Part shown: piece after piece, positions 3,888-55,708 of the stretch
Position numbering within the stretch: the stretch's first letter is position 1
How the letters are laid out: every line of letters starts with the position of its first letter
Assembly: GCA_015062495.1 (NCBI GenBank)
Contig: SUUN01000002.1
Coordinates: 71,905-135,904, forward strand
Length of the DNA: 64,000 nucleotides
From: Alphaproteobacteria bacterium
Lineage (GTDB): Bacteria; Pseudomonadota; Alphaproteobacteria; Rs-D84
Reading direction: 5' to 3'
Translations under genes and position numbers: made by a program
Notes under the pieces: model-generated
Seen by the model: only the letters and a program-made list of their open reading frames with translations
Database searches by the model: none
Told to the model about the DNA's origin: nothing

Positions 3888-3978
3888 GTCATACCCGCGC
3901 AGGCGGGTATCTATTGCCCCGCAGGGACTGCATAAAAATGTCTGCGACGCAGTGGATTCCCGCCTTCGCGGGAATGAC
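3888..3978. repeat. pair of inverted 24-bp palindromic units flanking a 43-bp core
   Basis: Unit 1 is GTCATACCCGCGCAGGCGGGTATC (3888-3911). Unit 2 read on the reverse strand is GTCATTCCCGCGAAGGCGGGAATC (3955-3978). Each unit is itself a hairpin (CCCGC-N4-GCGGG). The A/T differences between units are compensatory within each stem. Confidence 0.5.
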
Positions 3979-4085: not shown

Positions 4086-4120
4086 CAAAAAAATCCCGCG
4101 GTTGCGGGATTTTGTTTTTC
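4086..4120. terminator. bidirectional terminator AAAAAAATCCCGCGGTTGCGGGATTTTGTTTTT
   Basis: Hairpin with flanking A- and T-tracts, immediately downstream of the stop of the minus-strand gene ending at 4131. Confidence 0.6.
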
Positions 4121-4130
4121 CATCATCTGA

Positions 4131-4412
4131 TTATTGGATACCGACGCGGAACTGGTCGCCCCATTCGGCCACGTTTTGACCGCCAATGGTACATTTTATA
4201 TCTTCAAAACCATTTTCAACCTGGTTCTTTTTGACAACACTGCTGGTGATTAATCCGCCCGCAGTCCCCAATACAACCCCCGCAATACTGTCAGATGCCA
4301 AACGCGCGGTGTTAAATTTACCTTCTTCGTTTTTCCATACACTAACATCATCCCGGAATTTATTGTGTATCGATGTCAGTTGGCTGTACACACTGTTAAC
4401 CGTCTGGGTGGC
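4131..4412. repeat. ~280-bp inverted repeat (left copy), paired with 7219-7500
   Basis: Encodes the shared C-terminal 93 aa (ATQTVNSVYSQL...GDQFRVGIQ). The six-frame track shows identical antisense ORF products on both copies, implying nucleotide identity over at least 195 nt. Confidence 0.8.
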
Positions 4413-5609
4413 TGTAAACGTCGCAGACAAAACGCATTTTGTTTGCTCGTCATTAATTACCATGTTTGGATTGGTACATTTACATTCATTGTTTACCCAA
4501 TGCGCACCTGTGATTTTGTTGCATTCGACAATATCAGCCTTTAATTGACATTTTTTATTGCGCCATTCGTGTTGTGGGTTTTCGCATTTGCATTCGCCGT
4601 TATCCCAATATGCGCCGGTACTGGCGGCGGCCTCGCAATCACGTTTTAATTGCGCAGGATCGGTTAAAACACATCTGTCGCCATCGCGTTTATAGTTGCT
4701 GTCGGTGCAAACACATTCGCCATTATCCAGACGCAGATTCTTTGCCGCGTCACATTTACACCGGCCGCCCGACCATGTGCCACCTGATTTTACGCATTTG
4801 TTGCGAAGTGCCGCCGCGGCATTTTCGTTATTTATTGTCGCTTGAGATTTAACGCATTTCTTTTTGGTGGTATTAGGCTCGTATTTGGTTTCGCAAGAGT
4901 CTTTGATTAATGTTAAATCCCATCCGTTTGCTGCACATGTCACTGTACATTTTGCGTTGGTTTTAATGTATTCGGTGCTTTCTAATTTTCCAACAACAGA
5001 ACCAGAATTATTTGCCGCTATACAATCTTGTGAAAAGTTATAGCCGTTTGGGTGAGTTACTCCATCCTTGGTTTCACACTTGGGATTACGTGTGTCGGTC
5101 ACGCAATTGGTTTTATCCGCAGTGGGAACGAATCCAGTCTTACATTTATACATTACGCAACCATGATTGCCTGCGCCTAAGACAATACTGTCCCCTGTAG
5201 CACTTTGTATCGCGCCAGTTTTTGTGCCGTCAATTGCGAAAAATTTTTCCACATTTTGGGCCGTGCTACGTACTTCTGAATCCGAACATGTATCAGTTGG
5301 GTTGTGATTTGTCCATGTGTCATTATGACTGCCTGCATCAGAGCAATAAAAGAAACCATTTATACGATGGTTGAACGTATAATCTGGATGCTTGATGGCA
5401 ATTATTGTGCCTTCGCCACATTCGTAGTCATTGTCGCCCCAATTGCAACGATAGCACTGACCAGTTGCGTTATCTCCAACAACACCAGATGTTGATAGAA
5501 TGCTTTTATTGCTGCCACCACCGGGGCTGCATGTCGTAACCTTGCAATCTGCAAACGCATTTGTGCAAATAAGCGTTGAAAACACCACGAAAAATCCAAA
5601 TTTCTTCAT
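4131..5609 (-). CDS. secreted cysteine-rich protein with EGF-like CxC...C repeats and a conserved C-terminal glycine-zipper domain (family member A)
   Basis: 492 aa. Signal peptide MKKFGFFVVFSTLICTNAFA. About 50 Cys, with repeated C-x-C-x(5-12)-C modules (GGRCKCDAAKNLRLDNGECVCTD, GECKCENPQHEWRNKKC, NECKCTNPNMVINDEQTKC). The last 93 aa are identical to those of the 5791..7500 product. Confidence 0.8.
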   Translation of the reverse strand: MKKFGFFVVFSTLICTNAFADCKVTTCSPGGGSNKSILSTSGVVGDNATGQCYRCNWGDNDYECGEGTIIAIKHPDYTFNHRINGFFYCSDAGSHNDTWTNHNPTDTCSDSEVRSTAQNVEKFFAIDGTKTGAIQSATGDSIVLGAGNHGCVMYKCKTGFVPTADKTNCVTDTRNPKCETKDGVTHPNGYNFSQDCIAANNSGSVVGKLESTEYIKTNAKCTVTCAANGWDLTLIKDSCETKYEPNTTKKKCVKSQATINNENAAAALRNKCVKSGGTWSGGRCKCDAAKNLRLDNGECVCTDSNYKRDGDRCVLTDPAQLKRDCEAAASTGAYWDNGECKCENPQHEWRNKKCQLKADIVECNKITGAHWVNNECKCTNPNMVINDEQTKCVLSATFTATQTVNSVYSQLTSIHNKFRDDVSVWKNEEGKFNTARLASDSIAGVVLGTAGGLITSSVVKKNQVENGFEDIKCTIGGQNVAEWGDQFRVGIQ

Positions 5610-5631
5610 AAAAAATCTCCCTTGAAGCCTG

Positions 5632-5659
5632 CCTAATCCAAACGGTGGTTTGGATTAGG
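5632..5659. promoter_or_regulatory. perfect 28-bp palindrome CCTAATCCAAACGGTGGTTTGGATTAGG in the 5' leader of the minus-strand Cys-rich gene
   Basis: Sits 23 nt upstream of the ATG at 5609, just before the RBS AAGGGAGA. A 22-bp core recurs at 5744-5765 upstream of the divergent gene, in the same orientation relative to each gene. Confidence 0.55.
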
Positions 5660-5684
5660 CATATATTCGCGATTTAAAATATCC

Positions 5685-5713
5685 TTGGCACGTCCCGGAA
5701 AATATGATAAAAT
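5685..5713 (+). promoter_or_regulatory. candidate sigma70 promoter TTGGCA-17-TAAAAT for the 5791..7500 gene
   Basis: Spacing and hexamers fit consensus. The predicted start would put the downstream palindrome in the 5' UTR. Confidence 0.3.
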
Positions 5714-5743
5714 AACATGTATTAAGGATAGGAAAATTTGCTG

Positions 5744-5768
5744 AATCCAAACCACCGTTTGGATTAGG
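5744..5768. promoter_or_regulatory. second copy of the palindrome (AATCCAAACCACCGTTTGGATTAGG) in the 5' leader of the plus-strand Cys-rich gene
   Basis: Located 22 nt upstream of the ATG at 5791 and followed by CATATATAAGGGGAGA (RBS). Confidence 0.55.
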
Positions 5769-5790
5769 CATATATAAGGGGAGATAATCC

Positions 5791-7500
5791 ATGAAAAAAA
5801 TTGGTTTAATGATATTGTGCTGTATGATGATTGGCTCGACCGCATGGGGTAAGAGTGATTGCGAATATATCAAGGTTGGTACAGAAAAGTATGGATGTGA
5901 TACATCGGATTATAGTTCCAAGGAAATAGGCTATAACAGTGTTTATCAAGTGCTGGGGACGGGCTATTGCTATACTCAATCTAATACCAAAATGAGTGAT
6001 TTTACAAATAAAAAAGTAGCCTGTTACGACAAATCGGGCAGCGATGACTTGTGGACACGCGAACCCTTGAATCTTGATCCCAACAGTGTTATCAAAGATG
6101 TTAATAATTTGGTTGAGCATGCTGTATATGAAATTGCAAATTGCAAAGGTGATGGGGTGGCGGTTGCGCTGACCACTGAACAAATCCAGAATGGTGCTAA
6201 TGCAGTATGTTTTAACACCCCTGTAAAAATATCATGCCAACGGAATTATGCTTATGATGGCAATAAATGCATTCCGTTTGAGCAATGGGTGGGCGGATTT
6301 GACGATATTTGCAAGGAATCCAGTGTACAGCACGATGGCGTGGCGGATGAAAAAAAATTGAACACTGGAAATGATACGTATGTGTATTGCTATACAGAAC
6401 AGGAATTGCAAGGTATACGCGATAGGTTTTATTACGGTAATTCTTGCCTGGCAAATAAACATAAATTTAGACTTGGCAATAAATATTATAATTGCACGCC
6501 AAGCGGCTGGACCGAGCACACTTTTTCATGGTGTACAACTGGGAACGATTTCCAAAAATGTGATGGTATAGAACACTGTGTCACCGAATTATATGATAAC
6601 AGTACTCAAAAGGCAATAAAGGATGCCATCGGAACCGGTCAGTCAATGATATCTGATACAGGATCAACATATTGCCTGCGTAATGTTTGTGACAAAGGTT
6701 TTAGAAAGGTTGGCGACAAGTGTGTTGCAGAATCGGTTGTGCGTGATAATGAACAACGCGCCCGTAACGCCCAACAATCATGCGTATCAACGGGTGGTGT
6801 GTGGAAAGTAGGCACTTGTATGTGTGCGCCAGATAAAAATCTGGAACGTGATGGAAACACAAAATGTCGGTGCAAGGCAGGATATGAATACATCGATTCC
6901 AATAATAAGTCACAGGGCTGTAAAAAGATGAGTAAGACCATGATGAAAGAGGCCTGTGATGCCGCGTCCGATGCGTCATGGGATGTAAGTACAGAAACCT
7001 GTGTATGCAATATGGGTGATAACTATGTATTCAATTACGCCCAGAAAAAGTGCCTGCCGAACGATACGTATGCGGCATGTCAAAAATTGGTTGCGGCCGG
7101 GGATGCGCGTTGGGATGATACAGCCAAGGTATGTACATGTACTAAAAAGGGATTCGAATTTGACAGGGCGCAATGCGTTGAAACCGCCCAGGCAACCGCT
7201 GAACGGTTAACACGGGAAGCCACCCAGACGGTTAACAGTGTGTACAGTCAACTGACATCGATACACAATAAATTCCGGGATGATGTCAGTGTATGGAAAA
7301 ACGAAGAAGGTAAATTTAACACCGCGCGTTTGGCATCTGACAGTATTGCGGGTGTTGTATTGGGAACTGCGGGCGGATTAATCACCAGCAGTGTTGTCAA
7401 AAAGAACCAGGTTGAAAACGGTTTTGAAGATATAAAATGTACCATTGGCGGTCAAAACGTGGCCGAATGGGGCGACCAGTTCCGCGTCGGTATCCAATAA
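5791..7500 (+). CDS. secreted cysteine-rich protein with EGF-like repeats and a conserved C-terminal glycine-zipper domain (family member B)
   Basis: 569 aa. Signal peptide MKKIGLMILCCMMIGSTAWG. EGF-like modules (GTCMCAPDKNLERDGNTKCRCKAGYEY, ETCVCNMGDNYVFNYAQKKC, KVCTCTKKGFEFDRAQC). C-terminal 93 aa identical to the 4131..5609 product. Confidence 0.8.
   Translation: MKKIGLMILCCMMIGSTAWGKSDCEYIKVGTEKYGCDTSDYSSKEIGYNSVYQVLGTGYCYTQSNTKMSDFTNKKVACYDKSGSDDLWTREPLNLDPNSVIKDVNNLVEHAVYEIANCKGDGVAVALTTEQIQNGANAVCFNTPVKISCQRNYAYDGNKCIPFEQWVGGFDDICKESSVQHDGVADEKKLNTGNDTYVYCYTEQELQGIRDRFYYGNSCLANKHKFRLGNKYYNCTPSGWTEHTFSWCTTGNDFQKCDGIEHCVTELYDNSTQKAIKDAIGTGQSMISDTGSTYCLRNVCDKGFRKVGDKCVAESVVRDNEQRARNAQQSCVSTGGVWKVGTCMCAPDKNLERDGNTKCRCKAGYEYIDSNNKSQGCKKMSKTMMKEACDAASDASWDVSTETCVCNMGDNYVFNYAQKKCLPNDTYAACQKLVAAGDARWDDTAKVCTCTKKGFEFDRAQCVETAQATAERLTREATQTVNSVYSQLTSIHNKFRDDVSVWKNEEGKFNTARLASDSIAGVVLGTAGGLITSSVVKKNQVENGFEDIKCTIGGQNVAEWGDQFRVGIQ
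7219..7500. repeat. ~280-bp inverted repeat (right copy), paired with 4131-4412
   Basis: See the left-copy entry. Confidence 0.8.
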
Positions 7501-7516
7501 TCAGATGATGGAAAAA

Positions 7517-7545
7517 CAAAATCCCCCAGTCGGGGGATTTTTTTA
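7517..7545. terminator. bidirectional terminator AAAATCCCCCAGTCGGGGGATTTTTTT
   Basis: Lies between the convergent genes ending at 7500 and 7546. Member of the AAAATCCCCC-N4-GGGGGATTTTT family seen four times in the window. Confidence 0.7.
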
Positions 7546-10788: not shown

Positions 10789-10899
10789 ACCAATCTATCG
10801 GGAACAATCCCGATAGATTTTTTCTTTCTTGTTCCTTGACAATTTTATATTTTGTGTTACATTTCAAACAATGATAAAAAAATAAAAAGGGGAACACTC

Positions 10900-11403
10900 A
10901 TGAAATTATTTGGCAAAAAAAATTCAATATCTGCACCAACACCTGTTATGTCGACAATTCCAGAAGACCACGTGTCCAAGAAAAAGAAAAACACATATCA
11001 AATTGCATTTTCACCATTTATGTCAACGGAATTATTTACCCTGTGCAAAACCGCGCCGCTGGGTGTTATTGTCTTGAATGGCAAACAGACCCAAGAAAGT
11101 ACAGGCTGGATTTCTTGTACCCAATTTCCAAACCCCGGTGCATGTGACATGGCAACAAAACAAACCGTCCTGCGCGAAATTATGGGCGAAAAAATTGCGA
11201 CACAAATCATTGAATACCTGGACAAAGAAACTGGCAAACCTGTGGTTCAAGTTTTCCCAGAACTAATGCACGTATTTGATGGATACGAAGAAAATTATAT
11301 GTCACGTTTAAACCATGCATCACGCCGCGATTTAAAAAAACAGATTGCATTGCGCGAACGCCTGATTTCCGAATTCATGGCACGTCAACAGGCACAAAAA
11401 TAA
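10900..11403 (+). CDS. hypothetical protein
   Basis: ORF with RBS AAAGGGGAACACTC before ATG 10900. No recognisable motif. Followed by a terminator. Confidence 0.5.
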   Translation: MKLFGKKNSISAPTPVMSTIPEDHVSKKKKNTYQIAFSPFMSTELFTLCKTAPLGVIVLNGKQTQESTGWISCTQFPNPGACDMATKQTVLREIMGEKIATQIIEYLDKETGKPVVQVFPELMHVFDGYEENYMSRLNHASRRDLKKQIALRERLISEFMARQQAQK

Positions 11404-12076: not shown

Positions 12077-13705
12077 TTAGTTCAGCGGCGCGCCCCAGTG
12101 CTGCTGAATACTACGCTCTGCATCCATCGGGCTAACCAGAACCTGCGGCGTCAGGATAACAACCAACACTTCACGACTGGCCGATGTTTCACGCGAACCA
12201 GACAGCGCCATAAAGTCCGGATCACCCAGGCCATAACGCGTATCTGAACCTTTTTGTTTTTCAAATCCCGACACCACCAACATTTGACCTGATTCCATGA
12301 TAACTTCTTGCATGAAACTGCGCTCTTCAACCTCGGGCAATTGCAATGTCACTTCACCAATTGTCTGGGTTGACATACGCAATAGTTCACGCACCGACAT
12401 ACGGAACAGCAACAAAATCTTGCCATTTTCCAAAACATTCGGCAACAGTTGCATTGTGAATCCTGTTTCCAAATCGTCCTGATCAACCGTACTGGATTCA
12501 ACCGTTGTAAAATTACGCGATTCAAAACGCTTGATATAGCCGGTTGTACGTGTATTGCTGACCGGGGCAACACGGTTCGAACGCGTTGTCACACCAACGT
12601 TTGTAACCAACGATACCTTGCCCTGCTTTGCCAATGCTTCAATCAACGCATTGCTGCCCGCCGCACCTGACAGTGAACCATTCATAATCTGATCTTGGGT
12701 ATACGCCCCCTCTACAAGTGACGATCCCTCCATATGCGTTGCACCCGTCAATGCCGATACAGTATTAGACAACACAGCGATATTCATAGAACTGGCCTCG
12801 GTCGATGCCAAATTGTTCTTTGGATTTGCGACAATATTCAATCCAGATGTTGAATTAATCGCCGCCGCCAAATTCAAACCAAACGCAGAATCGTTTGAAA
12901 TCGTAACTTGCAAAACCTTAACATCAATTGTAATCAATTGACTCAAACGCTTGTTCTGACGTTCAATATATTCACCAACACGCGCCAAAATCGATGGCGA
13001 CGCGGTAACTGTAATTGTCCCTAAACTGCGCGACACTGTAAAGTCTGCATTATCTGCCTTGCCAATAATGGATTCGATTGCATTTTCAACTTCGTCCCAT
13101 TCTTTTAAAGTAGATTCCAGCGACACTTCATTTGAATTATCGGTCGACACAGATGTTTGATATGCAACCTCAGTCCCCAGGGCATACAAGGTAAATGTTT
13201 TTGTTTCTGTTTCATAAAAGACGATTGAATTTTTATCATAATACCACAACAAATCCAAATCTGTTGCGACCTGACTTAACAATCCGGACAATTTACCAGT
13301 ATATGCCACATTAACCAATTTCTTTAATTTATCAGACGATACCTGGCCATCAATTTTAACTGGGATACCAGTAATTGAATAAATATCATTAGCCAGCACC
13401 TGTAACGACACAGGTTCATTTAACAAGATAGTCACCCCCGTATCCGTTTCAAACTTAGACGGCAGGTTATTGCGATGTTCCAACACCATGGACTTGTTTC
13501 CCAACCAAACCCCTTCGGACATAGAAACTGTATCACCACTGGCAACCTTGGCGCGTGGATTTTTCGCCATTTCAAACGCATCATATGCGTTAATAAAATC
13601 CTGATCCACAGATGCTGCAACCTTGGCCGATTCGCGTTTTGCACATCCCGTTGCCGTCGCCAACACAACACTGCACAGAATTAAAAATTTTAATGACTTT
13701 CTCAT
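12077..13705 (-). CDS. secretin-family outer-membrane lipoprotein (type IVb pilus / T2SS-type secretin)
   Basis: 542 aa. Lipoprotein signal (LATATGC). C-terminal secretin signature GLGDPDFMALSG...EVLVVILTPQVL, analogous to the IPxLG...ELLVFITP motif. Confidence 0.7.
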   Translation of the reverse strand: MRKSLKFLILCSVVLATATGCAKRESAKVAASVDQDFINAYDAFEMAKNPRAKVASGDTVSMSEGVWLGNKSMVLEHRNNLPSKFETDTGVTILLNEPVSLQVLANDIYSITGIPVKIDGQVSSDKLKKLVNVAYTGKLSGLLSQVATDLDLLWYYDKNSIVFYETETKTFTLYALGTEVAYQTSVSTDNSNEVSLESTLKEWDEVENAIESIIGKADNADFTVSRSLGTITVTASPSILARVGEYIERQNKRLSQLITIDVKVLQVTISNDSAFGLNLAAAINSTSGLNIVANPKNNLASTEASSMNIAVLSNTVSALTGATHMEGSSLVEGAYTQDQIMNGSLSGAAGSNALIEALAKQGKVSLVTNVGVTTRSNRVAPVSNTRTTGYIKRFESRNFTTVESSTVDQDDLETGFTMQLLPNVLENGKILLLFRMSVRELLRMSTQTIGEVTLQLPEVEERSFMQEVIMESGQMLVVSGFEKQKGSDTRYGLGDPDFMALSGSRETSASREVLVVILTPQVLVSPMDAERSIQQHWGAPLN

Positions 13706-13737
13706 AATTATTCTCCTACGCCATCTGTCTGTGATAC

Positions 13738-14664
13738 TTATTCATCATCTGTTGAAATTACCAACACTCTATTACCCTTATAGAATTTTGCATATGGGAT
13801 TGGTGTCGCACGTCCAAAATTACGCACCAAAGCAGACGCCACATCAACAAAACGTCCCTTGAATACGGCACTGGCCTCAATCGGATATTCGCGCGGCGTT
13901 GTCCAAACTAAATCCCAACCTTCTTTATCGCACCAGGACTGCAAAACCTCGCGCAGGGTTTGACCATTTGCAACAACCCATGAACGAACCTGGTCTGTTA
14001 AATTAACTGGTGCTTCGGCATCTGCAGAAACATCCACCGCAATTTCAGTTTCTTCTTCAACAACCTCAACATCTTGTTCCACGCTTTCAACCTTCATACC
14101 ATTACGAACTGCAAACGCCTCATATCCATCGGCATATTTACCACAGTTCTTGCGTCCACTGCGCGACACAGCCAAAACATTTCCACCATCATCTTCTAAA
14201 ACCTCGCGATGCAACAGTGCCATCTCTGCCCCGTTACATTCGTCGTCAAAGCCAACCGGAATCTGTGTCCCGTGCAACAAATTCGCCCCACCGGACCAAC
14301 CTGTAAATTCACCACGCGCCCCCAGGTTAAAATTATTTTCAACCACTAAATCCGCACCAATCTTGGACACAATACGAATATTATCATCCTGCTTGGTCTT
14401 AGAACACGCACCACCTTCGCAGGAAATCTCTACATCGGCATCAGAACCCGCGATCGGCCACGCAGGCACACTTGCCGGCATTGCATAGTTTTCAACCATA
14501 TCCATTTGCATGGTATCAACCTGTTCATACGTTCCACCATCTGCGACAACATCTTGTTCATAGAACACCTCAGACGTTACGACCTGGGGCAAAGAATCCG
14601 CGGCAAAGCAATAGCCCGCCGCCGTTGCAAACATTGCAATAATCAAAATCTTGCGGAACATCAA
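13738..14664 (-). CDS. TcpQ/PilL-like protein (putative secretin-associated pilotin/assembly factor)
   Basis: 308 aa with signal peptide. C-terminal ~75 aa (QTLREVLQSWCDKEGWDLVWTTPREYPIEASAVFKGRFVDVASALVRNFG...YKGNRVLVIS) resembles the TcpQ / IncI1 PilL C-terminal domain. Immediately upstream of the secretin and co-oriented with it. Confidence 0.4.
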   Translation of the reverse strand: MMFRKILIIAMFATAAGYCFAADSLPQVVTSEVFYEQDVVADGGTYEQVDTMQMDMVENYAMPASVPAWPIAGSDADVEISCEGGACSKTKQDDNIRIVSKIGADLVVENNFNLGARGEFTGWSGGANLLHGTQIPVGFDDECNGAEMALLHREVLEDDGGNVLAVSRSGRKNCGKYADGYEAFAVRNGMKVESVEQDVEVVEEETEIAVDVSADAEAPVNLTDQVRSWVVANGQTLREVLQSWCDKEGWDLVWTTPREYPIEASAVFKGRFVDVASALVRNFGRATPIPYAKFYKGNRVLVISTDDE

Positions 14665-25235: not shown

Positions 25236-26768
25236 TCAGAAACGCAATCTGCCCACAATTGATATTTTGTATGACAACGTATCAAACATGCGCACGATGC
25301 TAAATTCTGTGTTACCACCAATCATATCATACGCCGACCAAACCCCAATTCGCGCCACACCGCGCATCATATACTGCGACGCAACATCGAACATAGCATC
25401 ATAATTGTATTTTATTCCCATCATTTCATATTGATACCCAACCATTACCCCACCACGCGCGTGCATTGTCCCATCTGTAACAGATTCCATTCTATAATTC
25501 GACATATCAATCCCGACAAAGGGCGCAATATAAAACGAATCGATTGGTACATACCTGTATCCAAAATCCGCCACCACATTCATTGACACAGCAGACGGAT
25601 TATTTATAACACGATTTTCATAAAACACATCACCCATATCAAAATCAAATCTTGTAACATCCACCAACCCGCGCACCCATAAATTATTTTTCATCAAATA
25701 TTTTGCATTTAAATTTAACCCATAATACACACCTGCAAAATTATCTAATTCTGTTTCATACTCAATATTTCCAACACGCATATTTATCGCAACATCCACA
25801 TCACCAATCCTGTCCACCCCACCCAGGTTTACACCATACGAATAAAAATTATCAGACCACACCAGATTTCCATCCACATAAATACCTGCATCTGTTTTAA
25901 ACAAAAATTTATCAAACGAATTAATGATTTCAATAATGTTCCCCAGAACACTTGGGTTAAATCGCACCGAACGTTTCATCGCATCACGCAACGCATCCAT
26001 ATGCGTTGCACTATCCATGTATTTCAACAAACCATCATCCGGATTCTTTGCCCGCAGATTATTCAAAAACAGCCCTGCTTTACTGTTTAAAACCTTTACA
26101 TAGTCTGTTTCACGCACACGTTTTACAAACAACCGTCCATCATCAACATATCCCACATCCGCGAACAAAGGATTATTCACATCACTTTGAAAATAAATCT
26201 GACCATTTGCCGACACATTATTAACAATCGGCACATCATACATATCTGACAAATCATCCACGACAAAAACAATATCGCCCAACAGATCTAATGCGTCCAA
26301 ATTTCTAAAATCAAAATTATTAATATCAACAATCGAATTCTGTATAACTAATTTATTCAGCACACCTGCATTTACCCCGGCATTTAAATAAATGTTATCC
26401 GCACCATCAATCATCAAAGTATATTTCACATTACTTACAATTGGATTAAAATCATTCACACCCGACACAACCTGAACAATATCTGCATCCATACCCAGAT
26501 TAAAATTTGCTGTAAAATCCCCGTGATTCAGAATTCTAAATTCACACCGTTCGCAAACTACAAAATCAGTATTAACCGAACCATTATTTATCAAATCAAT
26601 TGTTCTGTTAACATTAACAACATCTGGTTCAAATCTGATATTTTCACCAATGACGGTATCTGCGTTCAAATTGATAAAATCAGCCGTCACATCCCCCATG
26701 AACGAATCGGCACATGCCACACCATGGGACATAACAAGGAAAGCAAAAGCCAAAGCATAAAATTTCAT
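25236..26768 (-). CDS. outer-membrane beta-barrel / autotransporter-like surface protein
   Basis: 510 aa with a signal peptide. Asn/Asp/Val-rich beta-strand-like repeats. C-terminal ...SIVGRLRF with terminal Phe, an OMP sorting signal. Confidence 0.55.
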   Translation of the reverse strand: MKFYALAFAFLVMSHGVACADSFMGDVTADFINLNADTVIGENIRFEPDVVNVNRTIDLINNGSVNTDFVVCERCEFRILNHGDFTANFNLGMDADIVQVVSGVNDFNPIVSNVKYTLMIDGADNIYLNAGVNAGVLNKLVIQNSIVDINNFDFRNLDALDLLGDIVFVVDDLSDMYDVPIVNNVSANGQIYFQSDVNNPLFADVGYVDDGRLFVKRVRETDYVKVLNSKAGLFLNNLRAKNPDDGLLKYMDSATHMDALRDAMKRSVRFNPSVLGNIIEIINSFDKFLFKTDAGIYVDGNLVWSDNFYSYGVNLGGVDRIGDVDVAINMRVGNIEYETELDNFAGVYYGLNLNAKYLMKNNLWVRGLVDVTRFDFDMGDVFYENRVINNPSAVSMNVVADFGYRYVPIDSFYIAPFVGIDMSNYRMESVTDGTMHARGGVMVGYQYEMMGIKYNYDAMFDVASQYMMRGVARIGVWSAYDMIGGNTEFSIVRMFDTLSYKISIVGRLRF

Positions 26769-48367: not shown

Positions 48368-51088
48368 TTATTCATTATCCGGGGGATATATCAAACAACT
48401 GGTATAATTATTATATCCAAATGCGCCTGATTGTGTACATTCTATTTTTGCCTTTTTACACATATTTGCACAACGCTTAAAACCAGGCGATTTATCTTCT
48501 GTACCAAAATCACATGTGGCATCAACATAGGTATTAAATTTCCCATCCTTGTTTTTCATAACCGTATAAACCTTAATATCTTCACGCCATGTTCCGTGCG
48601 CATCATTACACGCACTTCGTGCCTTGGACAAATATTCTGAATATTTTCCACGTGTTGCAGACTGATAAATCGTTCCTTCCACTGCAGTTTGATCAAACCA
48701 CCAATCCGATTCCAACGGTCGCCACACAGTTTGTCCAGACGCCACAGATTCTACATCTGTATCTGCGAAACAATCCAATTTCATTTCCACATTTGGACAT
48801 GGCAGAGTATTATTTTCGCATCCGCCACCACGCCGCCTTGATACAAGTACGTCAACCTGAATATTCGCTGGCTTTTGTTTTGCGACAAAATAACTTTCCA
48901 ATAATTTCTGTTTAGCAAAGGCTATGTCAAACTCTTTATCAAAATCCTTGTAATGTGGAGAAACTAATTCGACTTCAAATTTACATACGCGCCCTGTTAT
49001 TTGCGACCACATTTCATCAATCTTTGCCTTGGCTACAGATGTCAATCCGTTATCACTGAAAAAATCTGCTTCTGCAATAATAACCCCATCTTGGTTTGAT
49101 GTTACCGCACCGACATTATTTAACACATCCTTGATTGCCGTATTATCCGGTATTATTTGATTGGGATTCACCATCCCCTGCACCTGCGATTCTGCTGATT
49201 GCGATTGTATATTACCAACGACGTTTGACACAGACTCCTCAGAATCTGATTCTACAACAGGTTCTGTAACAGAATTTTTTAACACAATATTTGTATGTGC
49301 ATTTTCATAATCTTTCTTGTCATATTTATTTTTACCTGAATTAATCGCCAGGTTACCAATCAATGACCCTGCCGCTCCAACAACCGCAGTTATTGCTCCT
49401 GTTTTCTTTTTTTCCGCAGTCTCATCTTTTTGTTCTTGCCACATCTTGGCGTCCTGGCTATTTGGATCAGTCAACGCCCGCGCCAACGATGCATATGCAC
49501 CACCTGTTTTCCCAATCGCTACATCATCATACAATCCAGATGTTGCCGCATTCAAAATCGGTTCAGACTCAATCCCAGGTCGCATCCCCAATGCTTCTTT
49601 GCGCACCTTTAAATCATTTGCCAGCGCAACATATTCTGCATACAGTGCAATCAAGTCATTACCACCCGGCAATTCAACATCAACATCACCACCACGCACA
49701 TTTTTGCCATTACCATAACTGCATGTAAACGTGGCCAGATATGCCCGCATTGCATTTTCCGCATCTGCATACGCATCTTGTTCCGCCGCACCTGATGCCA
49801 ACATCATACCGCCAATCCCAGTTGCACCAATACCCGCTGCCCCCAACAGTTTATTTGCATCTGATTGTTCCCTGTCTTTGGCGGATTTTGCACTATCTTT
49901 TAATTTATCAATATTGTTTTGTGATTCTTGTTGCGCTTGTAAACTATTCACCTGCGGATTTTCACCCGGGACAGCAACCACGTCATCTACAGCTGTTTCG
50001 TCATCACTAACAACGGTTGTATCCTGAACATTCGTGGGCGATGTCACACCATCGTCCGTCGTACTGGCACTGTCCCCATCTTCAACTGGCGCGGCAACCA
50101 CAGCTGTATCGGTCACGGTTTCTTGTGTTGGTGTCGACGTATTTTCCGCATCAGACTGCGCGTTGTCCTCTGTCACTGGCGCAACACATGTCAGGTCTGT
50201 TTTTTCCCCATCTATAATAGTTAACTTATATTCTGCATCCATTTTTTTTACACTTTGACAATAACTGTCCGCGACACACCACCCCTGGGACACCCCCGCA
50301 GAACTCACAACCAGATACGTCCCCGCCTTGCACTTTGTAGCCACACATTTTAGCCCAGAATTATATTTTCCCGCTGTTGCGAATTGTGGCAAATCGTTTG
50401 CGGCACAATTATCACCCGGCCCAATTGTACGCACACAACTTCTTTTATCATCCGACGGTCTATAATTCTGTTTACACTCAGAAATCGAGTTGACCCACAC
50501 CATGCGGTTTGGATTTTCCTTGTATGTACATGTTTTTGTACACGAAGCCGCGTTGGAATCAGTTATCACATTTGGCGCACATTCTTGATTTTCCAAGACT
50601 GTCCCCTCAGGCGAATCGCCACATTTTCTTTCCTGACATTTACCATCTGCAAAAAATCTATTACCGTCACAACTAGCCATCAGACACCCTCTGGGCCACG
50701 CACCATCTTCAACAAAATTCCCACCTTGAACCCTGCATCTCTGCTCTGCCCCATCTTGGTACACACAATACCGCGCGCCACTAACACTTAATGTTGTTAT
50801 TTGACTTTTCTCACACCAATTTGTTTGCTGTTTTTGCCACTCATCCGGCCAACCTTTAACACATTTATAATTATCGCCATATAATGTTTGCAACTCTGCC
50901 CCATCCGCAAATGAAAAAGTTCCTTTTCTATACACCGGATTACATTCATAACTACTACCGTTATTCAAATAAAAGAATGATTTATCATCCGATGAACTAC
51001 TGGCTGCATTCACCTGTCGCCATGGTGCCGCATCACCATATGCAGCATCTAAAATCAGACAAAAAAACAACACAAACAAACAGCGCAT
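48368..51088 (-). CDS. large secreted cysteine-rich modular protein (Cys-rich N-domain, acidic T/D/V-rich linker, glycine-zipper segments, Cys-containing C-domain)
   Basis: About 906 aa from MRCLFVLFFCLILDAAYG (track start 51136 runs into the leader hairpin). About 45 Cys in the first 330 aa. Linker TDTAVVAAPVEDGDSASTTDDGVTSPTNVQDTTVVSDDETAVDDVVAV. Gly-zipper segments GAAGIGATGIGGMMLASGAA and GAITAVVGAAGSLIGNLAI. Shares a KFNT motif with the 4131/5791 C-terminal domain. Confidence 0.7.
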   Translation of the reverse strand: MRCLFVLFFCLILDAAYGDAAPWRQVNAASSSSDDKSFFYLNNGSSYECNPVYRKGTFSFADGAELQTLYGDNYKCVKGWPDEWQKQQTNWCEKSQITTLSVSGARYCVYQDGAEQRCRVQGGNFVEDGAWPRGCLMASCDGNRFFADGKCQERKCGDSPEGTVLENQECAPNVITDSNAASCTKTCTYKENPNRMVWVNSISECKQNYRPSDDKRSCVRTIGPGDNCAANDLPQFATAGKYNSGLKCVATKCKAGTYLVVSSAGVSQGWCVADSYCQSVKKMDAEYKLTIIDGEKTDLTCVAPVTEDNAQSDAENTSTPTQETVTDTAVVAAPVEDGDSASTTDDGVTSPTNVQDTTVVSDDETAVDDVVAVPGENPQVNSLQAQQESQNNIDKLKDSAKSAKDREQSDANKLLGAAGIGATGIGGMMLASGAAEQDAYADAENAMRAYLATFTCSYGNGKNVRGGDVDVELPGGNDLIALYAEYVALANDLKVRKEALGMRPGIESEPILNAATSGLYDDVAIGKTGGAYASLARALTDPNSQDAKMWQEQKDETAEKKKTGAITAVVGAAGSLIGNLAINSGKNKYDKKDYENAHTNIVLKNSVTEPVVESDSEESVSNVVGNIQSQSAESQVQGMVNPNQIIPDNTAIKDVLNNVGAVTSNQDGVIIAEADFFSDNGLTSVAKAKIDEMWSQITGRVCKFEVELVSPHYKDFDKEFDIAFAKQKLLESYFVAKQKPANIQVDVLVSRRRGGGCENNTLPCPNVEMKLDCFADTDVESVASGQTVWRPLESDWWFDQTAVEGTIYQSATRGKYSEYLSKARSACNDAHGTWREDIKVYTVMKNKDGKFNTYVDATCDFGTEDKSPGFKRCANMCKKAKIECTQSGAFGYNNYTSCLIYPPDNE

Positions 51089-51106
51089 TAATCCCCCCGT
51101 CAACAT

Positions 51107-51210
51107 CATAATAAAAAACCACTGAAAAAACATCAAGTGGTTGGAGGTTCGTTACAACTTTTCAGGAAATTGTTCGCTTTATTCAATATATTCAAGCGAC
51201 CTCCAACCCT
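51107..51210 (-). promoter_or_regulatory. conserved structured 5' leader element, copy 2
   Basis: In mRNA orientation the order is: GGGUUGGAGGUCG (51210-51198) pairing with CGAACCUCCAACC (51151-51139) around a ~46-nt loop, then hairpin CCACUUGAUGUUUUUUCAGUGG (51140-51119), then UUUUUUAUUAUG..., then RBS GGGGGGA and AUG at 51088. Stem and hairpin are conserved with copy 1; the loop sequence is different. Confidence 0.55.
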
Positions 51211-51348: not shown

Positions 51349-53343
51349 TTACCTGTATTTGCGCCTACAAAAACCAATCGACACAATTAAAATAATAATC
51401 ATCCATCCATTCAGTCCAATCACACGATACGGTGTAATATGTGCCCCCCATACAAATCCATCCAGCACCCCCGTCGCGCCAATCGGCAATGATGATATGA
51501 TTGCGCCATCCGCCCCAACAAACGCGCTAATGCCCGAATAATTTGCACGAATAATCGGCAACCCTGATTCAATTGCATATCGCCGCACCATATCCAGATG
51601 CTGATATGTGCCCGGCGTATTACCGAACCAATTATCATTTGTAATATTCACAATTGCATGCACATGCCCCGTATTCCCACCTGGCAACAAAGAATCTGAA
51701 AAAATAATTTCATAACAAATCGCAGGCGCAAAAACAAAATCCCCAACCGCAAGCAGTTCTGGTCCACGTCCCGGCATCAAATCAACCGGCGCAGGCAAAA
51801 ATCCCAACGGTCTATACTCGCCAAATGGCACCAGGTGTGACTTGCTATAAATCTTGTTAATATCACCACCGTCGTTCACAACAACCATAGAATTAGACAC
51901 CCCATTCCCGTCAAACGTATTTGTCCCCATAACAACGGGACGTCCAATTATTTTTACAAAATCAAATGTATCATTTGGCACAACAACAAACGGATATGTG
52001 GTTTCCGGGAACACAACCATATCATATACCCCAGGCTGCGTTGCCAAATTCATTAAATTATTCAAATTGGTTTCCGCACGCGCCAACGCTTCGGCCCGAC
52101 TGTGTGTTGCCTTTTGCAATTGGGAATTGGCAGGTTGCACAATACGAACCATTGGCCCTGTTGCATCCGCCCCAACATCTGAATATCGCATATTTTGCGC
52201 ACCAACAAACATTCCACATATGCCCAATAAAAGCATACCAATTAACACCGCCCAACATGCACGACATTTTCTGTCCCGCAAAACTTCAACCAACGCCGCT
52301 ATTACCCCCACAATAACAAACGTTAATCCCAACGCCCCCCACAACGCCATAGAATTTGCCAACATCGGCAATGGCATTGTTATATTTGCAACCGGATTCC
52401 ACGGAAATCCTGTAAACATCCATTCACGCGCCCACAGAACCAACGCCCAAACACAGGCAAACAAAATCGCACGCGCCCCACCCGATATACGCATACGCGC
52501 AATCGCAACGAACGGCCATGAAAATATCAGCGCACCCGCAATCGCCAATCCAACCACACCTGGAATTGTCCAAATTGCAAACTGTTGGGTTAATTCCGGC
52601 ACAACATAAATCGAATGCAGAACCCACCAAAAATTTGCCACGGCATACATCGCCCCAAATGGCGACACACGCAATAACGAACGCCAAAAGCCACCTATAT
52701 TTTCATTACGAACCGTCAACCAGTATGCGCCCATTATTCCAACAATCGTCCACCACCAATGGTAAAATGGTGCGAACCCAAAACTGGCAACCCCACCAAA
52801 CAGTGCGTACAGCGCATATTGCCAAAAACCATTTTCACGAATTTTTAATCGCCGAAAAAACGCAAGCACCCCACCACCTGGGCAGCAACTGGCATCATTA
52901 CACGAAACAGCGACATCATCCGCATATGGATTTTTTATCCCCATTTTTTTCAGCACCTTTATTTCCTTCATCTCCATCAGAATTGCTTCTTCATCTGTCA
53001 TATGATCGTACCCCAACAGATGAAACATACCATGCACAACCATATGCGCCACATGATCATGAAACGATATTTTTGCCTCTTTTGCTTCGCGCATTACTGT
53101 ATCAATGGAAATATAAATATCCCCCAGTAACACATCGTCCCCCAATTCAAACGACAGCACATTTGTCGCCCTGTCTACATTGCGATACGTTTTATTGATT
53201 TCATGAATTTCCGCATCATTGGTCAGTATAATCGACACTTCGGCATTTTTATATTTTGCCCCAACCACAATATTGGCGATTTTTTGAAAGTCAATTTTAT
53301 GACTATCCCAACGTTTATCATGTGCATCAATATATACTTTCAT
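51349..53343 (-). CDS. fusion ORF: endoribonuclease YbeY (N-terminal ~150 aa) joined in-frame to apolipoprotein N-acyltransferase Lnt (C-terminal ~500 aa)
   Basis: N-terminus has the YbeY motif HGMFHLLGYDH. After the linker VAVSCNDASCCPGGG comes a polytopic membrane domain and a nitrilase-like CN-hydrolase domain (ICYEIIFSD) typical of Lnt. No intervening stop codon. The usual ybeY-corC-lnt arrangement lacks corC here. Confidence 0.75.
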   Translation of the reverse strand: MKVYIDAHDKRWDSHKIDFQKIANIVVGAKYKNAEVSIILTNDAEIHEINKTYRNVDRATNVLSFELGDDVLLGDIYISIDTVMREAKEAKISFHDHVAHMVVHGMFHLLGYDHMTDEEAILMEMKEIKVLKKMGIKNPYADDVAVSCNDASCCPGGGVLAFFRRLKIRENGFWQYALYALFGGVASFGFAPFYHWWWTIVGIMGAYWLTVRNENIGGFWRSLLRVSPFGAMYAVANFWWVLHSIYVVPELTQQFAIWTIPGVVGLAIAGALIFSWPFVAIARMRISGGARAILFACVWALVLWAREWMFTGFPWNPVANITMPLPMLANSMALWGALGLTFVIVGVIAALVEVLRDRKCRACWAVLIGMLLLGICGMFVGAQNMRYSDVGADATGPMVRIVQPANSQLQKATHSRAEALARAETNLNNLMNLATQPGVYDMVVFPETTYPFVVVPNDTFDFVKIIGRPVVMGTNTFDGNGVSNSMVVVNDGGDINKIYSKSHLVPFGEYRPLGFLPAPVDLMPGRGPELLAVGDFVFAPAICYEIIFSDSLLPGGNTGHVHAIVNITNDNWFGNTPGTYQHLDMVRRYAIESGLPIIRANYSGISAFVGADGAIISSLPIGATGVLDGFVWGAHITPYRVIGLNGWMIIILIVSIGFCRRKYR

Positions 53344-53370: not shown

Positions 53371-55242
53371 TTATGCCATATTTCCTTTGAATTCTTGCCC
53401 ATACAACAGCAAATCTTTCTTTGCATTTTTCTGGTGAATCTGTTTTATCCCAGAATGAAAGGCCACTTTTTTATTACCACCTTGCTTGATTTTTTCAGAC
53501 ACACGTGTGATATCATTTTGCACACGCCTGTTGCCATTTGCCAATGCTAATTTATAGTTCGCCAATGCCTTGTCTAATTTCCCCAGTTGTTCGTACGCAA
53601 ATCCCGCGTTGTATTGCGCTGCACCATATTGTGATTTATCACCGATACGCTGGACCACCTCGCGCGATTGGGCGATTGCTTCGTTATACATCCCCAGCTT
53701 ATTATAGGTTGCCGCCAAATCATTACGCAGCAATGCATTATCCGGATATTTTGCAATCATATCCTGATATTTTTCGGCCGCCCCACGATAATCCCCGGCG
53801 CGATACGCACCCACCGCATCGGCATATAATTCATCATATCCGATAACATATGTTTTAACCTCGACCTGCTCTGCTTCTTTTTTCTGTTTATCAGACCGCA
53901 ACACATTATCCCAAACACTTAGTGCACCTATTTCACACTTTCCAATTGCACACTGTTGTGCAATATCGACCGGCAACCAATCCGCCGCTGTTTTCCAGTG
54001 TGCCAACGATTCCCCATGTTTATTAACCGGATTTTCCAACCATTTATAGAAACGTGTCAACGTTTCATCATTTGCCACACGTTTGCCATTTTTTTCAACG
54101 AACCAGTTTTCACGTTTATCACCAATAATCTGATAAAACTCGTACATTCCGCCAATTGGGATTTTCAAGAAAACCTCAGGCTTAATATTTCCCTTCATTA
54201 CCTGGGCTTCTAACCATCTGCGCCATTTCAGTCCATTACCCCCCTTTAAAAAGTTCCCCAAACTATTGCCTATTTCATCCTTGGGCGCGCCATTCAGCCA
54301 CGCATCGCCAACGGACGTCATATGTTCCACCGGATACTTTGCAAACACATCACGCACCATTTCATTGGTTATTGCATTACCATATTGTTCATGCAGTTTG
54401 TCCAATTCTGCAAAACGTTCTTCGTATTTCCGATTCCTTTTTCCGTCTACCTTGGGTTCTTCTATTAAATCAGTACCAACATTATATGTTGCCGCCGACA
54501 ATGCAATTAATTCCCCCGCCCGATTAATATCAACGTTATCAAACACCACATCATAGCAATACAACCGAAACAGTGTTTCATTTTCCATAATATGCCAACA
54601 CGCTAATTCATAGGCCGCCTGGGTGGAAATTGGCGGTGTATTTTTATTAACACGCGTTCCGTCCTTTAAAACAGTTGAACCAAATCCAATTGTCCATATT
54701 CCACGTCCATCCAGATACGGCGCATGCATACCATTTGCATCAACATTAACCCCTTCCTTGGCAATCAGGTCCGCAACCAGATACGGCAACGCCCCCCGCA
54801 TTTTATCCAGATATTCTGCATACGTTCCACGCTTTGCGCGCTCAGCCTCGCGTTCAATTTTTACCTGATTAACCAAATCAGAAATTTCAACCCCCGCCTT
54901 GATTCCACCCGCAATAGATGCAATCAGCATATAATAAATCATATGCGACGACAGGTTTGGATGCCGTTTCATAAACTCGTGTAATTTTTTATTTTCGCCT
55001 TTTTTATTTTTTCCAACACGCATATCACGCAGTGCCTTTTCCCCCGCACGCAACGCATGATTATCCAACGTAATATATTTGGTTGCCCAGAATAAAAATT
55101 GTGCCAACCCCGTCATGGTCATCCCTGCACCTTTTGCAACCTTGCCATACCATTTATCGGGTTGTATACGCTTGATTTCCTGGGTTGCGCGCCCAAACGC
55201 TCTGTGTGGAAAATTAACAATATTACGGAATTTTTCTGACAT
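53371..55242 (-). CDS. membrane-anchored GH24 (T4/lambda-type) lysozyme-domain protein with C-terminal TPR repeats
   Basis: 623 aa. Predicted transmembrane helix (MIYYMLIASIAGGIKAG). Lysozyme motif LIAKEGVNVDANGMHAPYLDGRGIWTIGFGST with an E...D...T catalytic-triad pattern. C-terminal TPR-like AEKYQDMIAKYPDNALL...YNKLGMYNEAIA...YEQLGKLDKALANY. Confidence 0.65.
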   Translation of the reverse strand: MSEKFRNIVNFPHRAFGRATQEIKRIQPDKWYGKVAKGAGMTMTGLAQFLFWATKYITLDNHALRAGEKALRDMRVGKNKKGENKKLHEFMKRHPNLSSHMIYYMLIASIAGGIKAGVEISDLVNQVKIEREAERAKRGTYAEYLDKMRGALPYLVADLIAKEGVNVDANGMHAPYLDGRGIWTIGFGSTVLKDGTRVNKNTPPISTQAAYELACWHIMENETLFRLYCYDVVFDNVDINRAGELIALSAATYNVGTDLIEEPKVDGKRNRKYEERFAELDKLHEQYGNAITNEMVRDVFAKYPVEHMTSVGDAWLNGAPKDEIGNSLGNFLKGGNGLKWRRWLEAQVMKGNIKPEVFLKIPIGGMYEFYQIIGDKRENWFVEKNGKRVANDETLTRFYKWLENPVNKHGESLAHWKTAADWLPVDIAQQCAIGKCEIGALSVWDNVLRSDKQKKEAEQVEVKTYVIGYDELYADAVGAYRAGDYRGAAEKYQDMIAKYPDNALLRNDLAATYNKLGMYNEAIAQSREVVQRIGDKSQYGAAQYNAGFAYEQLGKLDKALANYKLALANGNRRVQNDITRVSEKIKQGGNKKVAFHSGIKQIHQKNAKKDLLLYGQEFKGNMA

Positions 55243-55243
55243 T

Positions 55244-55708
55244 TTATTTTTTCCCCAGCCCTGTTTTCTTGGCTATCTTTGAACGCTTGCGCGCATAGGC
55301 CGGCGCAACAAACGGATAATCATCCGGCAACCCCCACTTTTCACGATACTGCTGTGGGGTTAAATCAAAGCGTCGCTTGATATACCGGCGCAGCATCACA
55401 TGCCACGTCCCATCTTCCAGACATTGAATCTTGTCTGGTCGAACAGAATCCTCGATTTGTTGTGGTGTAACGGACGTTCCGCGTAAAATCTCGCGCGCAT
55501 TTTTTACTGCCATCTCCATCGTCAGTTTTGGATTCGCATTAATTGCCGCCGCCGCCAAATTTGCAACCGCCAAAGTGAACTCAGAATTTTTATTTACCAA
55601 CTTGCCAATTCCTTTATAATTTAATAATATAATTATACCACAAATGAACCATAAATAAAAGCCAAGTAAAATGACACGACCACTTGCCGATTTAATGCGT
55701 CCCAACAC
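55244..55708 (-). CDS. mucR: MucR/Ros-family transcriptional regulator (variant with non-canonical zinc ligands); true start probably downstream of the track start
   Basis: C-terminal IQCLEDGTWHVMLRRYIKRRFDLTPQQYREKWGLPDDYPFVAPAYARKRSKIAKKTGLG matches the Ros/MucR DNA-binding domain (..CLECG..HL..HH..TPeeYRekWgLp.dYPmvApnYa..Rs..Ak..GLG), but the second Cys and both His are replaced. The first ~30 codons overlap the divergent rarA start and are likely not translated. Confidence 0.6.
   Translation of the reverse strand: MLGRIKSASGRVILLGFYLWFICGIIILLNYKGIGKLVNKNSEFTLAVANLAAAAINANPKLTMEMAVKNAREILRGTSVTPQQIEDSVRPDKIQCLEDGTWHVMLRRYIKRRFDLTPQQYREKWGLPDDYPFVAPAYARKRSKIAKKTGLGKK

Follow-up and report, generated by a model that had tools for sequence, protein, structure and literature searches.

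A divergent pair of hypervariable exported-protein alleles in Candidatus Enterousia and the promoter that may switch between them

The window analysed here, a stretch of 64,000 nucleotides (nt) from contig SUUN01000002.1, belongs to a metagenome-assembled genome (MAG) of Candidatus Enterousia (Rs-D84) and contains two divergently transcribed genes for cysteine-rich proteins: gene A (4131..5609, minus strand; 492 amino acids, aa) and gene B (5791..7500, plus strand; 569 aa). The locus appears to hold the main variable, strongly expressed exported protein of this organism, and we consider it probable, if by no means assured, that it is an expression site at which two alleles of a hypervariable exported protein are switched by an invertible promoter. 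The diversity of the protein is enormous (953 clusters at 50% identity), its alleles are exchanged between lineages and it has an apparent built-in DNA switch; if the switch is real, it would be a compact natural example of how a minimal genome can achieve phase or antigenic variation. Candidatus Enterousia and its Rs-D84 relatives, all with genomes under 1 Mb, are common in the gut, have not been cultured and are believed to depend on other cells for their living; to our knowledge almost nothing is known of their cell surface. Candidatus Enterousia belongs to the order Rs-D84 and is a gut bacterium with a genome smaller than 1 Mb that is probably dependent on partner cells (PMC12306168).

The two start codons lie 181 nt apart, and the original prediction, an earlier reading of the same DNA, missed what occupies this interval: one promoter common to both genes, with a palindromic site on either side in opposite orientation, an arrangement that our data support directly. 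The sole sigma-70-like promoter (5685..5713, plus strand; TTGGCA, a 17-nt spacer and TAAAAT with a TG extension, TATGATAAAAT) faces gene B, and the perfect extended −10 element of TATGATAAAAT and a GGGGAG ribosome-binding site are signals of strong expression. An intergenic scan at a threshold of 9/12 matches found no promoter facing gene A, only weak −10-like hexamers where the gene B promoter is read on its other strand. On each side of the promoter, 20–52 nt before the start of gene A or gene B, is a 32-bp palindromic site (left, 5630..5661, TGCCTAATCCAAAC-GGTG-GTTTGGATTAGGCA; right, 5739..5770, TGCTGAATCCAAAC-CACC-GTTTGGATTAGGCA) built of 14-bp arms around an asymmetric 4-nt centre, and the two sites are mutually inverted (GGTG versus CACC). 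An inverted-repeat search placed them in the arms of a 76-nt, 78% repeat at the 5′ ends of the genes (5593..5668 and 5732..5807) that takes in the first codons, the ribosome-binding site, the untranslated region (UTR) and the site. Judging by homology, the predicted invertible segment would cover about 105 bp (5648..5752), comprising the promoter and the inner arms of both sites. One promoter between two sites was found in six of the seven divergent pairs, L047 alone having two promoters (related loci and contigs are numbered with the prefix L); the one-promoter, two-site pairs listed are those of the window, L049, L076, L065, L029, L058/L067 and L096.

Promoters of the same type stand upstream of family genes in most loci. 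With one mismatch allowed, TATGATAAAAT occurs 20 times in the window (754, 1693, 5703, 15605 and 46262 among the positions), against 4.1 occurrences expected, and appears to be a general strong promoter element of the organism. Since the reverse strand of TATGATAAAAT promoters always reads TATCAT, they could fire in both directions. The centres of the palindromic sites (5644–5647 and 5753–5756) read GGTG or CACC relative to the gene in a strain-dependent manner (L092, L001 and L093), and in L092 the centres of the two sites point the same way, a configuration that would lead to deletion and not to inversion.

Inversion of the segment is directly supported in a related species. With identical flanks in the same order, the segment of about 90 bp that lies between the two site centres faces a small gene in L096 and L097 and is reverse-complemented in L098, which comes from another sample, and in L029, an independent MAG contig of 274 kb. 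Compared with L096/L097, the reverse complement matches at 91/96 positions in L098 and at 85/96 in L029, whereas the forward orientation matches at only about 42/96. The outer arms are fixed between the two orientations, as is the right-hand centre (bar one base in L029), while the left centre of L098 differs by one base from that of L096/L097, and inverted DNA gives way to fixed DNA at the centre of the site. Because the imperfect inner arm shifts from one site to the other between fixed outer arms, the palindrome resembles a two-arm recombination site with an asymmetric centre, such as lox or dif. Sites of this kind (lox, FRT and dif) have 12–14-bp inverted arms about a 4–6-bp asymmetric centre, and an inverted pair of them gives inversion; by eye, the sites described here have no apparent sequence similarity to the dif consensus. 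The few base differences between the orientation states show that they come from different source populations. Within the clade of the window, L091 has the right-site inner arm joined to the outer arm and leader of gene A, exactly as a gene-A-facing state predicts, L092 has kept a decayed left site and the gene A leader with gene A itself gone, and L101 has the two-site arrangement with another partner.

Since there is one promoter, the sites are inverted and both orientations occur in a related species, the pair is most likely an invertible-promoter switch. We propose that the head-to-head alleles, with one strong promoter between inverted 32-bp palindromic sites, would be toggled by recombination between these sites, which would flip the ~105-bp segment and cause either gene B (the present state) or gene A to be transcribed, the outcome being a two-state antigenic or phase switch. 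The inverted orientation of the alleles would be explained by their sharing the invertible promoter. Several observations weigh against this proposal. In this strain all 11 contigs examined, from several samples, have the promoter pointing towards gene B and the flipped state was not seen, so that switching in this strain remains an inference. No recombinase was found among the scanned open reading frames (ORFs) of the window, and at ~105 bp the segment is shorter than the invertible promoters known to us. The L098 scaffold is just 546 nt long and palindromes can produce assembly flips (the L029 contig measures 274 kb). Single-gene loci carry one partnerless site in the 5′ UTR, so the site may act, in addition or in place of recombination, as an RNA stem-loop, and the promoterless partner has decayed to 68 aa in L029 and 126 aa in the protein P0023 and is deleted in L092, which suggests that the partner may often be dispensable. 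A search of metagenome contigs gave no match to the gene-A-facing junction, but the control, the observed junction, also gave none even though its pattern does match the window, making the result uninformative.

These observations bear on a rival account that we consider rather unlikely, in which the pair is static: the promoter would be fixed to gene B, with gene A silent, archived or decaying after an inverted insertion, and the palindromes would be 5′ UTR stem-loops for mRNA stability or translational regulation. In a variant, the symmetric −10 region, which reads TGTTATTTTATCAT on its other strand, also drives weak transcription of gene A, and the two genes are expressed at unequal levels. 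The single orientation in 11/11 contigs and the truncated or deleted promoterless partners in L029, P0023 and L092 agree with a static pair, as do TATCAT and TGnTATTTT on the reverse strand of the −10 region and the properties of about half of the single-gene loci, in which the 5′ UTR folds into a stable stem-loop (median z about −2) with compensatory arm changes and many G-U pairs; the compensatory changes are compatible with an RNA role or with symmetric protein binding alike. A static pair is harder to reconcile with a homologous segment inverted between unchanged flanks in a related species, with the recurrence of one promoter between two inverted sites in six pairs, and with a gene A that has no promoter facing it at 9/12 matches and is nevertheless intact in all contigs, its allele type being under purifying selection (ratio of non-synonymous to synonymous divergence, dN/dS, 0.19).

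Several contigs break near the palindromic sites. L083 and L090, both from the strain of the window, begin within a site, L058 begins at one, and L067, L072 and L094 end no more than 150 nt upstream of the family gene. Contig ends at these positions may reflect within-sample heterogeneity (inversion or allele polymorphism) or assembly trouble.

The two alleles are also linked at their 3′ ends. The original prediction had described two divergent genes for cysteine-rich, signal-peptide proteins with different N-terminal regions, and the ORFs, the signal-peptide-like N-termini and the Cys counts (32 in gene A, 35 in gene B) agree with it; the product of gene B is 100% identical to the NCBI entry 'hypothetical protein E7008_02910 [Alphaproteobacteria bacterium]'. 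Direct comparison also bears out that the last 93 residues, hereafter the C-module (gene A, 4134..4412, minus strand; gene B, 7219..7497, plus strand; recognised by codon comparison and by columns conserved across species), are the same in both proteins. Identity of the underlying DNA, which had been claimed as well, does not hold: codon-by-codon comparison gave 274/279 matches, all five differences being synonymous (at about 61 synonymous and 218 non-synonymous sites), and the identical antisense ORF products that had suggested it arise because antisense and sense frames have third codon positions in common. The inverted repeat had been expected to be perfect, at least some 200 and probably some 280 bp long, with copies 2.8 kb apart. 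Alignment of the 3′ ends confirmed its existence and its spacing (327 nt, with 2804 nt between the arms), but the arms (4087..4413 and 7218..7544) are 97% complementary rather than perfect, a similarity that far exceeds chance level. Each arm comprises the C-module, the stop codon and a terminator hairpin (4090–4113 and 7518–7541, the latter common to gene B and the convergent dnaJ). The similarity has a sharp edge at codon −94 and runs about 45 nt 3′ of the stop, through the terminator, where the stems of the two genes differ by compensatory changes. Upstream of the C-module the products are about 30% identical across ~170 residues of Cys-rich repeats, and before that they are unrelated.

Concerted evolution of the 3′ ends is directly supported by comparison with other strains. 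The C-modules within this genome differ at 5/279 positions, and each differs from the alleles of other strains, very close ones included, at 14–20/279. As the original prediction proposed, these sequence comparisons support gene conversion between the inverted copies which, added to purifying selection, would keep the C-modules alike; the 327-nt repeat would then be the C-module and terminator of two oppositely oriented alleles, held similar by both processes. That strong purifying selection or a recent duplication alone produced the 3′ near-identity, with no ongoing conversion and no recombinational role, seems to us quite improbable. It would fit the absence of changes at ~218 non-synonymous sites, all five differences being synonymous, and a C-module protein that is nearly invariant genus-wide, but it does not account for a synonymous divergence between the copies three to four times below that to their own allele type elsewhere, in a comparison that includes a strain with a pgsA synonymous divergence (dS) of 0.02, or for a similarity that extends into the non-coding terminator and ends abruptly at codon −94.

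A GC-rich palindromic element, ATTCCCGCCTTCGCGGGAATGAC, occurs twice in opposite orientation (3888–3910, minus strand; 3956–3978, plus strand) within a spacer of 340 nt that separates the terminators of pgsA and gene A. The element translates to the 'IPAFAGMT' motif of spurious ORFs and has no further copies in the window. The spacer is absent from single-gene relatives, and a similar element adjoins the family gene in L065.

The regions upstream of the C-module vary in mosaic fashion, which is likewise observed directly. Thirteen close relatives have a near-identical C-module, to which signal-peptide types, N-domains and middle domains are joined in every combination; the mosaic map of N1/N2 against mid1/mid2 has all four combinations, and in one allele the breakpoint falls within the middle domain. 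The slot between pgsA and dnaJ holds a single gene in close relatives, of A type in L091, of B type in L092 and of other types in L093, L095 and L001. Compared with L092, gene B has a dS of 0.22 and a dN of 0.12, evolving roughly tenfold faster than pgsA (dS 0.022). Compared with L091, the flanking genes have dS values of 0.85–1.16 and gene A has 0.30, with a dN/dS of 0.19 in the head (N-part). A gene A dS so far below that of the flanking genes points to transfer between lineages, and from the L091 and L092 comparisons together we conclude that alleles are functional and pass from one lineage to another. In two 60-codon windows of gene B dN/dS exceeds 2, which is suggestive only; counts in these windows are too small and positive selection is not claimed. 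The 3′ C-module together with the 5′ site may provide the boundaries for allele exchange among strains. A protein that varies in this way is a candidate target of selection by the host, by phages or by partner cells.

On sequence evidence, the C-module defines an uncharacterised, lineage-specific protein family, whose existence is directly supported by profile searches. Searched against 1.84 billion representative proteins (clusters at 50% identity), the C-module profile retrieved 953 cluster representatives at E ≤ 1e-3, 927 of these at E ≤ 1e-10. The module forms the protein end in 247/249 retrieved sequences, and a signal-peptide-like start is present in 127/140 full-length-looking family proteins, which have a median length of ~475 aa and a median Cys content of 5.6% (ten members have eight Cys or fewer). 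Genes A and B match the profile in the same way: each product begins with a signal peptide and closes with the module. When species-representative genomes were scanned with the 93-aa module, 214 loci were confirmed, almost all from rumen and gut MAGs named Candidatus Enterousia or Alphaproteobacteria. The module had no match in Pfam or NCBIfam (E ≤ 1) and none in PHROGs; its profile had one match only among all PDB sequences, a designed coiled coil at E = 3.5, and a literature search found no paper on the family or on DUF5874, the Pfam domain discussed below.

These results uphold the predicted layout of variable passenger regions on a conserved C-terminal module, given the 953 clusters, the C-terminal position and the mosaic alleles: other genomes of the lineage carry the C-module attached to different N-domains, and the module matches no known anchoring domain in Pfam, NCBIfam or PDB. 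An expansion of the family inside the window was not seen; the window has two copies and related genomes typically have one or two per 20-kb locus. Among the family members is a 'headless' protein (P0023; L096:3001-3381) of 126 aa that consists of just a signal peptide, a stalk helix and the C-module and occurs on seven contigs, and a 68-aa family remnant lies at L029:8540-8746. Each occupies the partner position of a divergent pair.

In our reading each protein consists of a Sec signal peptide, a mosaic head that evolves fast, a stalk made up of DUF5874 modules and one helix, and a near-invariant C-module of 70–93 aa that would act as a membrane or envelope anchor. The C-module runs from the end of the stalk through SVWKNEEGKFNTARL, a hydrophobic glycine-zipper segment (SIAGVVLGTAGGLITSSVV) and KK to a conserved 31-aa tail (GFEDIKCTIGGQNVAEWGDQFRVGIQ), with the consensus SVWKxxEGKFNTARLASDSIAGVVLGTAGGLITSxVVKKNQVENGFEDIxCTIGGQxVAxWGDxFRVGIQ. 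Many of its columns are invariant across species, including 31 residues after the hydrophobic stretch. The zipper residues G-VVL-G-TAG-G-LIT-S are invariant or nearly so in 84 sequences; there is no match to a Pfam Gly-zipper family at E ≤ 1, and we therefore treat the zipper as a motif only and not as family membership. A GxxxGxxxGxxxS pattern within an 18-residue hydrophobic stretch followed by an invariant KK is consistent with a membrane helix that oligomerises and carries a short, conserved tail. The C-module has no confident AlphaFold2 monomer fold, the rest of the protein being confident; modelled alone with 40 sequences, it reached a predicted local distance difference test (pLDDT) score of about 58 (~50–60) and formed one hairpin and a pair of short helices that span the glycine-zipper segment. 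One consideration sits badly with a surface antigen: a Sec signal and a C-terminal hydrophobic helix would by default place the protein in the inner membrane, facing the periplasm. Identifying the partner of the C-module may reveal how proteins are attached to the envelope in such bacteria.

Another possibility, which we regard as improbable, is that the C-module is an oligomeric outer-membrane beta anchor resembling that of trimeric autotransporters, or a sorting signal for dedicated export (secretin/TcpQ), possibly cleaved. The architecture of head, stalk, helix and short tail agrees with this, the last strand (QFRVGIQ) has alternating hydrophobic residues, a low-confidence monomer model is expected of an obligate oligomer, and a tail so strongly conserved suggests that it has a specific partner; the gene also lies a few kb from a secretin gene and a TcpQ-like gene in most genomes. 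Against it, Pfam and NCBIfam searches at E ≤ 1 gave no YadA_anchor, autotransporter or sorting-signal match (in NCBIfam, none of the LPXTG, PEP-CTERM or GlyGly-CTERM type), the PDB sequence profile search had no significant match, the low-confidence AlphaFold2 monomer has short helices rather than a four-stranded sheet, the protein end is not aromatic, and the hydrophobic segment is followed by 31 conserved residues, which sets it apart from signals of the PEP-CTERM or LPXTG type. The most specific form of our proposal is itself doubtful: a ~105-bp invertible promoter flipped by a housekeeping (Xer-type) or other recombinase acting on lox/dif-like sites that double as junctions for swapping whole alleles between strains and species, with the C-module as a new Rs-D84 envelope-anchoring or sorting domain displaying a protease-resistant, disulfide-rich variable coat.

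The head and stalk gave a clearer structural picture. Gene A encodes a signal peptide, a variable Cys-rich N-domain, three tandem Cys modules of DUF5874 type (residues 252–394; 4428..4856, minus strand), a stalk helix and the C-module, and gene B, which the single intergenic promoter drives, has the same architecture with another N-domain. The gene A modules follow the pattern C-x7-10-W-x3-4-C-x-C-x11-13-C, with four to six Cys each. In an AlphaFold2 model built with 33 homologues the head of gene A is confident, with pLDDT above 90 over residues ~190–390, including the three modules (~250–394), each of which forms a helix and two beta-hairpins; a long helix follows (396–421), and residues 422–492, the C-module, fall below 50. 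Gene A reaches the gathering cut-off of Pfam DUF5874 (PF19202; 27.5 bits over residues 282–344, cut-off 27.1), as do 17 of the 33 aligned relatives in their middle Cys modules (best E 2.5e-10). The homologous region of gene B (residues 310–470; 6718..7200, plus strand), ~30% identical to that of gene A, scores 11.7 bits, under the cut-off. DUF5874 is a domain of unknown function and covers the stalk repeats only.

The N-terminal regions had been described as EGF-like, a label that our data do not support. Among EGF profiles in Pfam (E ≤ 1) gene A had no match and gene B matched only EGF_MSP1_1 (E = 0.15, 12.5 bits, cut-off 27), and the confident model contains no EGF fold, its only structural likeness being a weak one to fibronectin type I modules; EGF domains have six Cys with disulfides 1–3, 2–4 and 5–6, and the repeat unit here has four Cys (C..W..CxC..C) and matches DUF5874. 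The glycine-zipper segment and the KFNT motif had also been placed in a large cysteine-rich protein elsewhere in the window. This 922-aa exported protein (48368–51136, minus strand), which has no Pfam or NCBIfam match, has two Gly-rich hydrophobic segments in mid-protein and KDGKFNT near its end. As a third family member it fails: KDGKFNT is all that it has in common with the C-module, the hhalign probability is 21% and the profile does not match it, and we do not regard the two as homologous. The associated interpretation, that the pair encodes EGF-like host-interaction effectors of an intracellular bacterium within an in-genome expanded family including the 922-aa protein, is very unlikely in our view. 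The proteins are indeed Cys-rich and exported, and the genome is reduced and probably partner-dependent (PMC12306168). Set against this are the missing EGF signature and fold, the lack of homology to the 922-aa protein, the one or two copies per locus with no expansion and the origin of the MAGs in rumen and gut contents, with nothing pointing to intracellular life; on these sequence comparisons the interpretation has largely failed as regards both EGF membership and the 922-aa protein.

Known switching and variation systems resemble the locus in part. In Campylobacter fetus, the sap system produces antigenic variation of the S-layer by promoter inversion: a single promoter lies between opposed homologous surface-protein genes with a conserved block, and inversion selects the gene. 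The sap segment is several kb long, its conserved block is 5′ (N-terminal) and it inverts by homologous recombination, whereas the pair described here has a ~100-bp segment, 32-bp palindromic sites and a C-terminal conserved block. Small invertible promoters are known from E. coli (fimS), Bacteroides fragilis (polysaccharide promoters), Clostridioides difficile (cwpV) and Mycoplasma penetrans (mpl). Promoters of this type also have short inverted repeats around the promoter of a surface structure and occur in both orientations in their populations, but they span ~135–315 bp, mostly turn one gene or operon ON or OFF and have an identified invertase, while the ~90–105-bp segment here would toggle two divergent alleles. 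Giardia expresses one variant-specific surface protein at a time. These gut proteins likewise join a variable Cys-rich ectodomain to a nearly invariant C-terminal membrane span and tail, but Giardia is a eukaryote with ~200 such genes, CXXC motifs and control at the level of RNA; the system described here has one or two genes per genome, CxC motifs, a proposed DNA inversion and diversity at the population level. The Hop/Bab paralogues of Helicobacter pylori have near-identical ends, divergent middles and shuffling by gene conversion, and differ in that their conserved C-terminus is a known beta-barrel domain, unlike the 70–93-aa module described here, which has no known fold. Trimeric autotransporter adhesins share the signal peptide, variable head, helical stalk and short conserved C-terminus, but a YadA-type anchor is matched neither in sequence nor in the fold predicted, at low confidence, for the monomer, and the head here consists of disulfide-rich globular modules. 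The locus is thus set apart from its analogues by a very short segment, lox-like palindromes, a C-terminal constant block and an unknown domain. A switch this short, with defined 32-bp sites, could become a genetic tool if the recombinase is found.

The neighbourhood of family loci is conserved, the pair in the window being flanked by uvrC, pgsA, dnaJ and parE/gyrB. In most other species the family gene lies near dnaA, between a secretin gene and parE, and it is also found beside dprA; in the lineage of the window the locus sits between pgsA and dnaJ and not beside dnaA or dprA. The secretin gene with its adjoining TcpQ-like gene is at 12077–14664 (minus strand) in the window and at L019:1560-4139, and in most Enterousia genomes the family gene lies a few kb from these genes, a position likely to be close to the replication origin. 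Among the other products encoded in the window are LolA, Lnt, an outer-membrane beta-barrel protein and an autotransporter-like protein, and from these genes and the secretin we conclude that the cell has two membranes. A 183-aa protein without a family match (10852–11403, plus strand) is fast-evolving (33–89% identity), and its homologues lie directly downstream of the family gene, convergent with it, in most Enterousia genomes.

Further genes in the window include an ORF of 664 aa (51349–53343, minus strand) that combines a YbeY endoribonuclease domain (residues 20–133) with apolipoprotein N-acyltransferase domains (183–627) and may be either a true fusion or two in-frame genes with no intervening stop. 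Further envelope-related genes on the same strand encode a phage-lysozyme and TPR protein (53371–55242) and a MucR/Ros regulator (55244–55708). The protein with an autotransporter-like beta-domain is encoded at 25236–26768 and a dTDP-rhamnose (rml) gene cluster at 60381–63597, both likewise envelope-related and on the minus strand.

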